Positions 39,012-43,458 of a stretch of 64,000 nt of DNA are shown here, one piece after another. Origin of the DNA: Escherichia phage vB_EcoM-pEB20; sequence record OP114733; one strand, 5' to 3'. A model generated the notes under the pieces. That model ran no database searches, was not told the DNA's origin, and saw nothing but the letters and a program-made list of their open reading frames with translations. Made by a program: the position numbers and the translations under genes. Each line of letters opens with the position of its first letter. The first letter of the stretch is position 1.

Positions 39012-39614
39012 ATGCGAAACCAAAATAATGATATTGACTCAATGTTCGAAGAGTTCCGAGATAAGGTAAATCCACCTACGTCTTTAGTTGATTCATTACG
39101 ATATGTTGCAACCGGACGTAAATGGTACTGGTCGTCTTCTTATGAGACCGCCGAGAAAACGGCTAGCCATAGCAGAAAATCTTTATTAGCCCCAGGTATT
39201 ATGATTCATGATATCGGAGCTATTGCTAAACTAGTTGCAGACCATGATATTAGATTCACTGATTTCGTTGCTCCTACGTGGTCTGTTTGTTGTTTAAACA
39301 CTGAATGGGAATATATCAGCGAACGCTCTGAAGATTATTATGGTTTTAGAGATAAGCTTCTGAGGTCTAATATGTTTTATATCGATACAGAAGTTCTAGT
39401 CGATAATAAAAAATATTACTTTACGTTAATCATCGATTCTGAAACTATGTATGAAGGCAAGCCTTTGCTTAAAAGAGTTGATGCTTTAAGTGCTATTGAT
39501 GCGCTTTATGAAACTATGGTTGTTAGTCCTAATTTCACTAACAATTTAATCCTTGAGCAATTTATTATGGAATGTAGAGAATATGTCAAAGCCAACCCTA
39601 TACATGCCAAGTAA
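39012..39614 (+). CDS. hypothetical protein
   Basis: ATG MRNQNN after AAGGAG; C-terminus contains EQFIMECREY. Confidence 0.55.
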   Translation: MRNQNNDIDSMFEEFRDKVNPPTSLVDSLRYVATGRKWYWSSSYETAEKTASHSRKSLLAPGIMIHDIGAIAKLVADHDIRFTDFVAPTWSVCCLNTEWEYISERSEDYYGFRDKLLRSNMFYIDTEVLVDNKKYYFTLIIDSETMYEGKPLLKRVDALSAIDALYETMVVSPNFTNNLILEQFIMECREYVKANPIHAK

Positions 39615-39978
39615 GCCCTGGGCATACGAATACAAACGTAAATTAATCCCAAATGAAGTACTATTTGGCCCTATTTTAGCTTTAGCATTTTTAATCTTTA
39701 TGATTATAGGAGCTATTTTAGATTCTAGTGAAGTTATATCGTCTGATGCAGTGTTTTTACTTATTATAGTCGGGTCGTTTATTGTGCCATTTTTATTAAT
39801 GCCTATTAATTGGGTAGGATATTGGCACCAAGGCCGTCATCACAGAGCCCGATTAAGAGAATGGAAAGTTCAGTGCGCAAAAGCCCAAGCTCAGTATGAT
39901 GAAGCTGTTAAAAAGTATGAATATGAAGAAGCTATGGAATTCGTTAAGGAAATAAGATGCAAAAGCCTCAACTCTTAA
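39583..39978 (+). CDS. membrane protein
   Basis: two hydrophobic helices; C-terminal EFVKEIRCK. Confidence 0.5.
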   Translation: MSKPTLYMPSKPWAYEYKRKLIPNEVLFGPILALAFLIFMIIGAILDSSEVISSDAVFLLIIVGSFIVPFLLMPINWVGYWHQGRHHRARLREWKVQCAKAQAQYDEAVKKYEYEEAMEFVKEIRCKSLNS

Positions 39979-40316
39979 CCGTATGGCCTTCTCTTGGTGA
40001 GAACATTCTAATTTTTATTATGAGTATTGGCATGGGATTTGCCTTTGGATTAGTTGGATTTCTTATTGACGGCGTTGTGTTAGGATTTATAGGGAACACT
40101 GGTGGATTCACAGACCAATGGCAGGACTTACGATATACTCAAGCCTTTGCATCCATTGCATCATTTTGTACTATAGTCTATTTTTACTACGATTTTATAA
40201 ACCATAACAAGAAAAATAAAAAGGTTTACGCTTCTCAAATGATTAGTTATAATGAACTCCTAGCTAGACGTGAAAATGAAACAATCGAAAACTTTATTAA
40301 GGAATGTAGAAAATGA
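39957..40316 (+). CDS. membrane protein
   Basis: 119 aa, two transmembrane helices; C-terminal ENFIKECRK. Confidence 0.55.
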   Translation: MQKPQLLTVWPSLGENILIFIMSIGMGFAFGLVGFLIDGVVLGFIGNTGGFTDQWQDLRYTQAFASIASFCTIVYFYYDFINHNKKNKKVYASQMISYNELLARRENETIENFIKECRK

Positions 40317-40618
40317 GTAAGATTATTGAAATTAAAGTACCAGAGTTTAATGATGCCAAATCCGCTTCAGATGCAATTTATAAACTTCTGAATCAAGCTG
40401 AACGTATCGAAGAAGAAGCAACAAAGATCGCAGACCAATATGCCGTATCATTTTCTGTAGGTGATTATGGTAGCGGTCGTACTTATTATCCTAAGGGTGA
40501 AATCGTATCCCAGTGGATGAAAGATGAAATTGAAAATAATGGTGGCGATGTTAAGCGTGAAGGTAATGGTTACGTTATTACTGAAGGTGCTTGGGTTTCG
40601 TCTTCTGCGTTGTGCTAA
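40313..40618 (+). CDS. small protein, GWVSSSxxC family, paralog 1
   Basis: 101 aa ending GAWVSSSALC. Confidence 0.55.
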   Translation: MSKIIEIKVPEFNDAKSASDAIYKLLNQAERIEEEATKIADQYAVSFSVGDYGSGRTYYPKGEIVSQWMKDEIENNGGDVKREGNGYVITEGAWVSSSALC

Positions 40619-40627
40619 GGAATCATT

Positions 40628-40900
40628 ATGTCTAAAGAACAAACCGAACTGGCTGAAGCTGTAGCAAAAATCTATGCAGCTATTGAGGCTGCCAAAGAAA
40701 TTGCTGATAAACAAAACACAACATTCGACTTGTACCCAGCTTATGGTATGGGTGGAACCTATCATTCACCCGGACATCTTAAAGCCGATCTTGAACGTTG
40801 TACAAAAAACGGCTATGCTGAATGGGCTGACGTTTACCAATACGACTACAACCTGAGCCTTGAAGATGGCGGTTGGGTTGCATCTTCTCACACTTGCTAA
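40628..40900 (+). CDS. small protein, GWVSSSxxC family, paralog 2
   Basis: 90 aa ending GGWVASSHTC. Confidence 0.55.
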   Translation: MSKEQTELAEAVAKIYAAIEAAKEIADKQNTTFDLYPAYGMGGTYHSPGHLKADLERCTKNGYAEWADVYQYDYNLSLEDGGWVASSHTC

Positions 40901-40909
40901 GGAAACAAT

Positions 40910-41107
40910 ATGTCTCGTGAATTAGATTGTGCTGTACGTACGGCAGTAGCTGCTCTGGAAAACCTGTTCCAAATTGCAACAGAAGAACGCGAAGAAGTTA
41001 CATTATGGATTGAAGATAACGCAGGTCTGAATCTCCAGGACGCGATCTCATTATCCCACAATAGTATCACTGTTCAAGGCTGGGTATCATCTAGTTATTC
41101 TTGCTAA
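40910..41107 (+). CDS. small protein, GWVSSSxxC family, paralog 3
   Basis: 65 aa ending QGWVSSSYSC. Confidence 0.55.
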   Translation: MSRELDCAVRTAVAALENLFQIATEEREEVTLWIEDNAGLNLQDAISLSHNSITVQGWVSSSYSC

Positions 41108-41111
41108 AACA

Positions 41112-41140
41112 GTTTACAACAAGATAGGGCTATGTTATAG
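41112..41140 (+). promoter_or_regulatory. early promoter in stem-loop cassette (PeSL-like)
   Basis: GTTTACA; inverted repeat atagggcta/tagtcctat around the -10. Confidence 0.45.
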
Positions 41141-41169
41141 TAGTCCTATCAAAACAAATGGAGTCCACA

Positions 41170-41409
41170 ATGATTTATTACGAAAGTATCGGAACCAAAG
41201 TGGTTGGTAAAACCATTACTCGTGAAAAGTTTGCAAAGATATTCGATATGCGTTATAAAAAATCTGAACACAAAGGCATCCGATTCGAAGATGCGCACTG
41301 TACAATTTGCCCTTATAATGAAGACATAAACGGTACAATCGTTCCATTGGTAGAGGCTTCACATGATGACCTCTGGGATGAATATGATATCGCATGTCGT
41401 GAAATTTAA
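41170..41409 (+). CDS. hypothetical protein
   Basis: ATG MIYYESIG after AAATGGAG. Confidence 0.5.
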   Translation: MIYYESIGTKVVGKTITREKFAKIFDMRYKKSEHKGIRFEDAHCTICPYNEDINGTIVPLVEASHDDLWDEYDIACREI

Positions 41410-41437: not shown

Positions 41438-42394
41438 ATGATGTTGGTTATTGGTTCTCGTGCACTTCACTATCACGGTCTTATTGATTCTAGCGCTATT
41501 AAAAATAGTGATTGGGACTTTATTGCGGACCAATGTTCTTGGAATGCATTCAAAAATCAAATGATGGGTGTATATGTTCACCAAGATAACCCTGATGTCC
41601 AAGTTTTCAAATGCTTCCATAATGGACGCGAAACTCATTTTGAAGCATATATTGTTCCGGCAATCACTAATGTCCGTGAATTAGTCGGTGAACTCACTCC
41701 TGAAGATTTCACGTCTTCTTATGACCTTTTAAAATACGCCAAGAAAAATTTGACTAAAGACCGTTTGAACGGGTTTTACTGGGCAACTCCTGAGATATGT
41801 CTTGCAATTAAGATGTCTCATCGTTTCAAGAAAAATAATCCATTCTTTTTAAAGACTATGAACCATATTCAGTATCTTCGTGGTAAAGGTGTTACACTGG
41901 ACGATGAACTTACTGAAATTATGCTGAAACGCCAGAAAGAAACCTTGAATTATGCTCACCCAGTTCTTGACACTTCTAAAAGTGCGTTCTTTAAAGATGA
42001 CATCTATACATATGACCATGATACTATTCATGAAGCCATTGCACTAACAGACCGTCCAGCGTATACATTTTACATGAAAGATGGTTCTGAAGTCATGACC
42101 TCACGCGAGAAGTTCGAATCATTACCAGAAATGGTCAAATTGGCTGGTGTATACGAAGAATCATGTGTACTAGCGTTAGAACGTTCTCAGATTCCTAATA
42201 ACTTTGAAATCCATCCACGTGATAGTTTTATGATGGCTCTTGAAAAGGTCTGTACTTCAATCACATCAGGTTGGTTCCGTGAATACGCCTGGGAAAACCA
42301 CAGCAAAGTAGTAAGTATGTACCAAAGCTTAGGACATGACGATTACGTCAAACGTTTCAAACAAAATTTCCATATGGTAAAACCTTTCAAATAA
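41438..42394 (+). CDS. hypothetical protein with weak nucleotidyltransferase-like N-terminus
   Basis: 318 aa; N-terminal GS...DWDF resembles a GS-x-DxD motif with non-canonical spacing. Confidence 0.5.
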   Translation: MMLVIGSRALHYHGLIDSSAIKNSDWDFIADQCSWNAFKNQMMGVYVHQDNPDVQVFKCFHNGRETHFEAYIVPAITNVRELVGELTPEDFTSSYDLLKYAKKNLTKDRLNGFYWATPEICLAIKMSHRFKKNNPFFLKTMNHIQYLRGKGVTLDDELTEIMLKRQKETLNYAHPVLDTSKSAFFKDDIYTYDHDTIHEAIALTDRPAYTFYMKDGSEVMTSREKFESLPEMVKLAGVYEESCVLALERSQIPNNFEIHPRDSFMMALEKVCTSITSGWFREYAWENHSKVVSMYQSLGHDDYVKRFKQNFHMVKPFK

Positions 42395-42464: not shown

Positions 42465-42770
42465 ATGAAATTAGGCGAAACCAACCGAATTGGTCTTTTA
42501 ACAATATTTGTATCACTTTTTTACGCAGCTCTTTCTGTTGCAGTATTACAAAAGGCTTACAGTATGGATGGTGTTCCTGGTTTTGTATTCTTATCGCCGT
42601 TTTTGCTATTCGTTGGAGCATTGTTATTATATGCCACGACTAGTTTCGACCATAATGTCTGGGTCAATTATAAATGTAAATTGTCTGAAGAAGAACACGC
42701 AGAAGCTCGTAAAAAAGCTATTGAATCTACCAATCTAGAAAATTTCATTAAAGAATGTCGAGGAAAATAA
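42465..42770 (+). CDS. membrane protein
   Basis: 101 aa, two transmembrane helices; C-terminal ENFIKECRGK. Confidence 0.55.
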   Translation: MKLGETNRIGLLTIFVSLFYAALSVAVLQKAYSMDGVPGFVFLSPFLLFVGALLLYATTSFDHNVWVNYKCKLSEEEHAEARKKAIESTNLENFIKECRGK

Positions 42771-42771
42771 T

Positions 42772-43458
42772 ATGAATAGTTCTAAAGTGTTTAATAGTCA
42801 AGCTCGTGCAGTAGGTGGTTTTGCTCATGCGATTAAAAATGACCAGATTAAAAACGAGCCTATGTTCTTTAACTGCGATTTGAATTTTGCTTTTGATAAT
42901 GGCGGCCCAATTACTCGTAGCTTTATCCAAAATCTTCCTGACGATTGGAAAGACTCGGATGTAGTATTTGATTCACGAGTCCACATGTTGATGCCTGGTT
43001 GGTATCCTGCTATCCCAGGTTATCACCATGACGATGTACCACGCCCGGATATTCCGGTTGGTCAACATTTTATTACTGCAGGACAACCTGACTATGACAA
43101 CCCTCGTTACCATTCTGAACATATTCTTGGTCTTGTTAACGCTGATGTGTGTCCTACTCATTTTGCAACAGGAACTGCAGAGTTCAGTCAGATTCCTGAT
43201 GGCGAACTTATCTATCGCCAGTGGCACAAAGAAGTCCTCGAAAAAATTGAAAAAGGTGAACTAGAGAAATGGGAAGCTCCAGACCGTACTCTTCTTCAGT
43301 TTGATTGGCAAACATGGCACACTGGCTCTCATGCAATTAGTAATGGATGGCGTTGGTTCGGACGTGTATCTCGTAATACAGACCGAGTTAAAAAGATTAC
43401 CAATGAAATTCGTGTCAATGCTCAAGTTTATCTGGAATTCCCTATGGAAGGCTGGTAA
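42772..43458 (+). CDS. hypothetical protein with His/Asp cluster
   Basis: 228 aa; segment HMLMPGWYPAIPGYHHDDV could be a metal site. Confidence 0.5.
   Translation: MNSSKVFNSQARAVGGFAHAIKNDQIKNEPMFFNCDLNFAFDNGGPITRSFIQNLPDDWKDSDVVFDSRVHMLMPGWYPAIPGYHHDDVPRPDIPVGQHFITAGQPDYDNPRYHSEHILGLVNADVCPTHFATGTAEFSQIPDGELIYRQWHKEVLEKIEKGELEKWEAPDRTLLQFDWQTWHTGSHAISNGWRWFGRVSRNTDRVKKITNEIRVNAQVYLEFPMEGW

Follow-up and report, generated by a model that had tools for sequence, protein, structure and literature searches.

Small acidic phage proteins with a common Trp/Ser/Cys tail and their linkage to a DUF7277/DUF7275 gene

Among described systems, GlnD–PII and the type VII toxin–antitoxin pair MntA–HepT come closest to the gene arrangement reported here. 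In the former, a loop Tyr is uridylylated, and in the latter, a Tyr is AMPylated. The arrangement was found in a window of 64,000 nucleotides (nt), the whole stretch of DNA analyzed, from Escherichia phage vB_EcoM-pEB20 (sequence record OP114733). It consists of three consecutive small genes, p1, p2, and p3 (positions 40313..40618, 40628..40900, and 40910..41107, all on the + strand), followed by a gene for a 318-amino-acid (aa) protein of the Pfam families DUF7277 and DUF7275 (41438..42394, + strand), referred to below as the putative enzyme, or the enzyme for short. The likeness to the two known pairs is that a protein with a G-S...D-x-D...E pattern and a His/Asp-rich helical domain is encoded beside small proteins with invariant hydroxyl residues. 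However, no sequence relationship was detectable for the enzyme (hhalign against GlnD, Prob 0.1; Pfam, PADLOC, and PDB negative), and the small proteins have neither the PII fold (a ferredoxin-like trimer) nor the HEPN fold (Rx4-6H). Furthermore, Ser and Cys in a C-terminal tail take the place of the loop Tyr, there are several paralogous putative clients per enzyme, and the module is phage-only.

Other systems resemble parts of the locus. Lanthipeptide and aminovinyl-cysteine (AviCys) clusters, which yield ribosomally synthesized and post-translationally modified peptides (RiPPs), also combine tandem diversified genes and an S/T-x-x-C-COOH terminus with a single neighbouring enzyme. In contrast, the tail proteins are intracellular early phage proteins with folded domains of 65-150 aa, and no homologue of a dehydratase, cyclase, or LanD decarboxylase was found by Pfam in the flanking genes of the window. 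Acidic C-terminal interaction tails are known from Escherichia coli SSB (...DDDIPF-COOH) and T7 gp2.5. An acidic variable linker with a short invariant tip at the exact C-terminus is seen in both cases, which may be taken as an architectural analogy only; the tip here is W-x-S-S-S-x-x-C, and there is no OB fold. In addition, the DNA mimics Ocr and ArdA and the nucleotide sponges Tad1, Tad2, and Acb2 are small, acidic, early, phage-specific, and often located in variable accessory regions. No fold or sequence similarity to them was found, and those proteins act alone, whereas the tail family is tied to an enzyme gene.

Among the obvious candidates tested, the pair fits no known system and has the appearance of a two-part phage module not described before. 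PHROG and Pfam (DUF) list the component families as "unknown function" only, and the common tail and the link between the small families and the enzyme are not recorded in these entries. The literature searched held no mention of RB69ORF139c/136c/134c, phrog_899, DUF7275/7277, or PF23940/PF23942. Assigning the hundreds of early "hypothetical" genes of T-even and jumbo phages to functional units is a long-standing problem, and several PHROG and DUF families can now be treated as one testable unit, with an enzyme-like protein and 1-5 small acidic Trp/Ser/Cys-tailed proteins. The invariant Cys at the exact C-terminus, the fold without a PDB match, and the array of paralogues around one enzyme hint at protein chemistry or regulation in infection that has not been explored, and the locus is a good experimental target.

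Linkage of the tail proteins to the DUF7277/DUF7275 gene

The 318-aa protein is the orthologue of RB69ORF134c and matched the hidden Markov models (HMMs) of phrog_2141, which corresponds to Pfam DUF7277 plus DUF7275, with E-values of 4e-149, 4e-78, and 1e-27. Its gene lies 331 nt downstream of p3 on the same strand. A distant metagenomic tail protein also had a DUF7277+DUF7275 protein, of 303 aa, encoded directly downstream. The association was examined from both sides. From the side of the small proteins, IMG/VR was searched with a degenerate DNA pattern for YGMGGTY, independently of the enzyme, and 24 loci were obtained. Downstream DNA was sufficient in 17 of them, and every one of the 17 had a DUF7277/7275 gene after 1-4 small genes, on the same strand; the remaining 7 loci ended just after the small genes. 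From the side of the enzyme, 80 loci were collected by enzyme motifs, of which 75 had 1-5 tail-bearing open reading frames (ORFs) upstream. These 80 loci represented 27 lineages at 70% enzyme identity. After variant tails (WVQSSC, NWDSSTC) were re-checked, a tail protein was present in 26 lineages, and any other neighbouring gene was common to at most 4. The linkage is reciprocal. The distance from the last small gene to the enzyme gene ranged from an overlap to 1.6 kb, with 16 nt or less in eight cases.

The module was found in unrelated genome contexts, including T4-like phages, jumbo phages of 355-390 kb, Otagovirus, and Xanthomonas phage X1, in which the small gene is downstream of the enzyme gene instead. 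A search of GenBank yielded 733 phage records with the enzyme (Escherichia, Acinetobacter, Aeromonas, Pseudomonas, Vibrio, Gordonia, Streptomyces, and others). In contrast, it was found on only 6 contigs, all from metagenome-assembled genomes, in a set of 185,579 species genomes; 5 of these contigs also had tail proteins. The module is essentially phage-only.

A Cys-less sister clade of the enzyme, phrog_6944, was found in Vibrio phage XZ1, Alteromonas phage PT11-V22, Gordonia phage Aphelion (locus L120, 2809-3890), and Streptomyces phage Muntaha. In this clade, K-T-I-T-x-L-T-K-G-W replaces the otherwise invariant K-V-C-T-S-I-T-S-G-W-F-R, and none of the four phages had a Cys-tailed neighbour. 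The enzyme of XZ1, PT11-V22, and Muntaha was associated with a different protein of ~95 aa, acidic and aromatic-rich (Tyr-rich), of phrog_13591/18295. The gene of this protein is upstream of the enzyme in XZ1 (locus L130, 3360-3653 and 3656-4417) and downstream in Muntaha (locus L121, 2851-3893). In PT11-V22, the protein is fused to the enzyme C-terminus (locus L129, 3812-4963; BLASTP E 1.5e-13). This fusion is independent, Rosetta-stone-type support for an enzyme family that works with a small partner. The downstream gene of Aphelion, gp17 (phrog_16046), showed no significant similarity to the phrog_13591/18295 proteins. Overall, it is very likely that p1–p3 belong to a phage-only family of small proteins that function with the DUF7277/DUF7275 protein.

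The array proteins and their family

The protein p1 (101 aa, phrog_899, RB69ORF139c orthologue) has an isoelectric point (pI) of 4.6 and comprises a long helix, a YGSGRTYY hairpin, and the tail GAWVSSSALC. The most typical family member is p2 (90 aa, pI 4.7), with YGMGGTYH followed by GGWVASSHTC. The shortest, p3 (65 aa, pI 4.2, phrog_4882, RB69ORF136c orthologue), has a helix and the tail QGWVSSSYSC. The tails and their stop codons are at 40592..40618 (W94-V-S-S-S-A-L-C101), 40874..40900 (W-V-A-S-S-H-T-C), and 41081..41107 (W-V-S-S-S-Y-S-C), and the Gly-rich segments are at 40466..40489 in p1 (family consensus YGMGGTYY) and 40742..40765 in p2, all on the + strand. The three tails, and the presence of the Gly-rich segment in two of the three proteins, p3 being without it, were as described in the original prediction, and its tandem array with an invariant C-terminal Cys proved to be a real array of related small genes with a terminal Cys in all. 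In a six-frame scan of the window, the pattern W[VILMA][SATG]S[SAT]..C-stop occurred three times, each time in p1–p3.

All three genes are on one strand (+) and in one reading frame. Both junctions (40616-40630 and 40898-40912) read TGC-TAA-GGAA-N5-ATG, and the stop codon overlaps the Shine–Dalgarno sequence. Short spacers with Shine–Dalgarno-type GGAA had thus been predicted correctly, but both are 9 nt long and not 9-10. In JS98-like phages (Dhakavirus; loci L003, L034, L044), four consecutive genes had the same in-frame 9-nt spacing. The exact in-frame spacing probably reflects translational coupling, and read-through of a stop codon would fuse the in-frame array proteins. The p1 orthologue of RB69 (P0002; AY303349 ORF139c) is annotated as 71 aa and was 100% identical over 67% of p1, which may reflect a frameshift or a split annotation (ORF139c/138c) in the reference record of RB69.

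An exhaustive profile search with clustering at 50% identity gave 558 family representatives at E <= 1e-3, nearly all of 65-150 aa, and the profile match reached the last residue in these representatives. Word-indexed searches recovered few relatives. The consensus of the family is ...AE-x-IADE-x-G-[LIV]-x-F-x-F...YGMGGTYYP, a variable linker, and G-W-x-S-S-S-x-x-C. Tail and composition were counted on 144 representatives, and all but one (143/144) had W-x-[SAP]-S-[ST]-x-x-C at the C-terminus. Among these 143, the Trp, the middle Ser, and the Cys were invariant, the Cys was the very last residue in 136 and the sole Cys of the protein in 91, and the residue three before the Cys was Ser in 136 and Thr in 7. 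The linker had 5-58 residues with 27% Asp/Glu, and the mean pI of the family was 4.7, compared with 4.2-4.7 for p1–p3. Extra motif-like copies (W-x-x-S-[S/G]-C) were seen inside the acidic linker of 10 of the 144 members. The tblastn searches found 394 phage records with p1-like genes and 281 with p2-like genes, and every one of these genes was annotated as hypothetical.

For p1–p3, no significant match to a characterized family was obtained in Pfam, NCBIfam, PADLOC, or the PDB sequence profile search, in agreement with the earlier statement that no known family was recognized. Against the known defence and anti-defence components of PADLOC, there was one match of 12.5 bits (E 0.01) and no more. 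The matches in BFVD were uncharacterized family members only, and the PDB gave no sequence or fold match for the small proteins. Furthermore, neither a beta-grasp match nor a C-terminal Gly-Gly was found, the C-terminus being x-x-Cys, and the small proteins do not resemble ubiquitin-like or sulfur-carrier proteins (ThiS, MoaD).

The kinship of the three array proteins was compared at several levels. By BLASTP, p1 and p2 matched over 54 aa (E 7e-5), and the pairs p1–p3 and p2–p3 over 23-37 aa (E 1e-3). An HMM built from 133 distant members, none of them close to p1–p3, matched residues 13-101 of p1 (E 4e-22) and residues 3-90 of p2 (E 1e-25), but only the last 14 residues of p3 (E 2e-4). The phrog_899 HMM, through its C-terminal part, matched p1 with E 1.3e-22 and p2 with E 4.8e-19, and the phrog_4882 HMM matched p3 with E 7.7e-37. 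In the profile–profile comparison (hhalign), the p3 family aligned to the main family with Prob 91.6% (E 8e-7, 59 columns). Without the last 10 residues, the values were Prob 2.5% and E 0.019, in the same helix–strand register. From these sequence comparisons, p1 and p2 are beyond doubt full-length paralogues, and both were matched over the whole architecture of helix, F-x-F strand, YGxGG hairpin, and tail. For p3, the best description is that of a shortened relative with the tail and the architecture in common, its relatedness being secure via the last ~14 residues only. Accordingly, the claim of three paralogous genes holds for p1 and p2, which are similar far beyond the last ten residues, but p3 is confidently related through the tail only. 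The N-terminal amphipathic helix ascribed to all three was found in the p1 model, at residues 15-43, and is suggested by alignment in p2 and p3.

The AlphaFold2 model of p1, based on a 15-sequence alignment, was confident, with a mean predicted local distance difference test (pLDDT) score of 90.8. It contains the helix 15-43, the hairpin with YGSGRTYY, a short helix, strands ending in A-W-V-S, and a helical turn at S-S-A-L. The YGSGRTYY segment forms the end of a loop (50-55) and the second hairpin strand (56-59), which is paired with strand 47-49. The pLDDT drops to ~65 at the last residue only.

Several variants of the tail were observed. Proteins of 139-159 aa with unrelated N-terminal parts also carry it (...HAWCSSSMSC, ...VDWDSSSMYC, ...HGWISSSICW). 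They occur in the same arrays upstream of the enzyme (IMG/VR loci L070, L075, L076, L097, L104, and L091-L099), with up to five tail proteins per locus. In Acinetobacter phage Meroveus (locus L122, 1828-2446), the degenerate tails ...WSPSSESY and ...NWSNSES stand beside an intact ...WYNSSESC, which suggests ongoing decay or divergence of paralogues. Two candidates were set aside: the UvrB-like N-terminal piece of P0168 appears to stem from a chimeric gene call in metagenomic data and was left out of the analysis, and P0060 (2289 aa), which matched the Gly-rich segment at 14 short stretches, was regarded as an artefact of low complexity.

The partner protein and the possible role of the tail

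The residues G6-S7, D25, D27, K125, H128, N133, Y190, H194-D195, H198, E240-E241, and E248-R249 of the partner protein are invariant, as is C272, which lies in KVCTSITSGWFRE. Moreover, at least 90% of sequences retain H174 and D193, and at least 70% retain E69. The residues G6-S7, D25, and D27 were invariant in the 17-, 25-, and 27-sequence sets and in the actinophage homologues. A very conserved second domain, which contains the invariant residues from K125 to C272, follows the N-terminal region. The G-S, the D-x-D, and the mostly conserved E69 are in a strand–helix–strand setting, and this arrangement conforms to the Pol-beta nucleotidyltransferase motifs (hG[GS], [DE]h[DE]h, and a third carboxylate on a later strand). 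One GenBank annotator has labelled a homologue as a "putative nucleotidyltransferase". Beyond DUF7277/7275, Pfam gave isolated single-member matches to DUF6036 (E 0.25), which is described there as a nucleotidyltransferase of unknown function, and to DUF4269 (E 0.12). Profile searches of Pfam and the PDB with the N-terminal domain alone were negative. Since the motif pattern is present but the profile tests were negative, the odds that the partner is a nucleotidyltransferase are, on sequence grounds, roughly even. A comparative paper on jumbo phages described other nucleotidyltransferases (RlaP, CCA-adding) but not the DUF7277/DUF7275 protein.

In the proposed mechanism, p1–p3 would act as early-expressed, small, acidic members of a phage-restricted family together with the DUF7277/DUF7275 protein, and one enzyme would serve several client proteins. 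The invariant Ser/Cys tail would dock into the enzyme or undergo covalent modification by it. Through their variable N-terminal parts and linkers, the paralogues might each acquire a downstream specificity of their own, such as a different host or phage target. We put the probability that the small proteins are clients or partners of the enzyme, engaged through the Ser/Cys tail, at roughly 45%, and it is the physical or enzymatic coupling through the tail that we infer. The terminal Cys, the Ser four residues before it, and the copies in the linker fit a short reactive or recognized motif, and a short motif that is recognized or modified would be expected to recur in this way within linkers. 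One candidate chemistry, and a speculative one, would be nucleotidylylation of the Ser or Cys in the tail, because the enzyme has a Pol-beta-nucleotidyltransferase-like G-S...D-x-D...E pattern. It is a rather doubtful possibility that the tail proteins are substrates of an unrecognized phage protein-modifying enzyme acting on Ser and/or the C-terminal Cys (for example, by nucleotidylylation or a Ser–Cys cross-link) and become active effectors of host takeover or counter-defence. If this were true, a new kind of enzyme-plus-client module would be present in hundreds of virulent phage genomes, from T4-like to jumbo phages, and the sister clade would use a different client protein.

Several results weigh against this proposal. 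The array and the enzyme gene of the window are neighbours and not one tight operon, because a hairpin/promoter element and an 83-aa ORF lie in between. No tail protein was detectable within 4 kb of the enzyme in lineage L077/L078, the T4-like locus L053, or phage DSS3_VP1, where the partner may be encoded elsewhere or absent. The DSS3_VP1 enzyme (locus L128, 3986-4891) nevertheless retains the Cys (NKVCTTLCSGWFRD). All nucleotidyltransferase profile tests (Pfam, PDB, PADLOC) were negative, and the hhalign Prob of the enzyme was <=0.13% with both E. coli GlnD and T4 NrdC.11. With only ~55-65 residues, the N-terminal domain of phrog_6944 is short for a full Pol-beta catalytic core, and the single-sequence AlphaFold2 model of the enzyme was unusable (pLDDT 42). 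Moreover, the tail of p1 appears to be partly structural and not a free peptide, because W-V-S falls in beta-strand 93-96 of the model (pLDDT ~87).

The original prediction had suggested a decoy or inhibitor family. The small proteins could be stand-alone decoys, inhibitors, or small-molecule sponges, each paralogue alone binding a different host defence or housekeeping factor or signalling nucleotide, with the enzyme gene merely a fellow traveller in an accessory-gene island. Their small size, acidity, place among early genes, and phage restriction agree with this, as does the presence of 1-5 diversified tandem copies per genome, and the conserved Gly-rich loop with Trp/Tyr/Ser could form a ligand pocket. 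This explanation is nonetheless unlikely: the p1 model resembled none of the known phage inhibitors or sponges of the PDB in fold, and the strongest evidence, the coupling with the gene of a conserved enzyme-like protein of ~300 aa, which the original prediction had not noted, points elsewhere. A decoy or inhibitor role may still lie downstream of the enzyme coupling. The same linkage evidence would also suit regulatory subunits or inhibitors of the enzyme, of an antitoxin-like or "cysteine switch" kind, in which the thiolate or carboxylate of the terminal Cys plugs or completes a metal or active site formed by His/Asp/Glu/Cys of the enzyme, and a potentially toxic enzyme is held in check or directed to targets. 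The Cys in KVCTSITSGWFRE is invariant in tail-paired enzymes, with Thr there in the four sampled members of the clade that lacks Cys-tailed partners, and the fusion of a different small partner to the enzyme in one phage makes a stable complex plausible. However, up to five diversified paralogues per enzyme would be unusual for a simple inhibitor, the Cys of the DSS3_VP1 enzyme is kept without a visible partner, and the Cys/Thr correlation comes from few independent lineages, so such a switch is improbable.

The spacing S/T-x-x-C-COOH is that of the AviCys ring of epidermin-type lantibiotics. RiPP-like precursors, in which the neighbouring enzyme would turn [S/T]-x-x-Cys-COOH into a lanthionine or aminovinyl-cysteine-type ring or a C-terminal peptide–nucleotide adduct, would account for tandem diversified small genes with a single enzyme (several precursors, one modifier) and for the invariant Ser and terminal Cys with Ser or Thr always at position -3. 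Such precursors are very unlikely, as no LanB, LanM, LanKC, LanD, radical-SAM, or E1-like gene was conserved nearby in the 27 lineages, and the flanking genes lacked the modifying enzymes named above. The products are 65-150-aa folded cytoplasmic proteins, as judged from the p1 model, and not leader–core peptides; there were no export or protease genes, and the Trp and Ser of the motif are in a beta-strand of the fold. Finally, chance ORFs or a non-functional duplication remnant can practically be dismissed. The small ORF size, and nothing more, speaks for this explanation, which is refuted by conservation, with orthologues from Mosigvirus to Aeromonas, Acinetobacter, Pseudomonas, and jumbo phages, an invariant motif, and a confident structure prediction.

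Genomic context of the array

The region was 99% identical to RB69-like T-even phages of the genus Mosigvirus (APCEc01, JK36, MM02), and the array corresponds to ORF139c...ORF136c in RB69 nomenclature. The array and the partner gene are within the early-gene region equivalent to T4 e.6-e.2. The array is directly 3' of an e.3-like membrane-protein gene (39957-40316), and the p1 start overlaps the e.3-like stop (ATGA). In T4, e.3 abuts e.2, and in a six-frame search of the complete T4 genome, neither the tail motif nor the HMMs of the small proteins and of the enzyme gave a match. On these two grounds, the array block is an insertion relative to T4, and the earlier remark that the family was not recognized from T4 is borne out. 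A link to the DNA arabinosylation of RB69 was considered and rejected, because those genes (RB69p048-053; PMC13326640) lie elsewhere in the genome and the module also occurs outside the RB69 group.

By consensus scan, a putative sigma-70/T4-early-like promoter, TTTACG-17-TATAAT, was located at 40225..40253 (+ strand), inside the e.3-like gene and upstream of p1. In phage SA79RD, a T4-type middle promoter is annotated at the equivalent site. The array is bounded after p3 by a hairpin/promoter element at 41113..41158 (+ strand). It comprises a predicted early-like promoter from the same scan, TTTACA-17-TATAGT (41113-41141), and an overlapping hairpin with a 9-bp stem (41124-41149), which has been called a terminator by another annotator and is followed by no T-run. 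The intervening 83-aa ORF (41158..41409, + strand; phrog_3723) contains H-C-T-I-C-P, is lineage-specific, and is outside the conserved module.

The module is flanked on both sides by membrane proteins that have a common C-terminal motif. Both the e.3-like membrane protein and another small membrane protein, encoded 3' of the enzyme gene (42465-42770), end in ...ENFIKECR(G)K, with 9/13 identical residues (E 6e-5), and the e.4-like protein (39553-39978) ends in a looser ...EFVKEIRCK. Further downstream of the enzyme gene is a 228-aa ORF (42772-43458; phrog_1843) with a PGYHHDD segment and no Pfam family, which is kept in T4-like relatives only (2/27 lineages).

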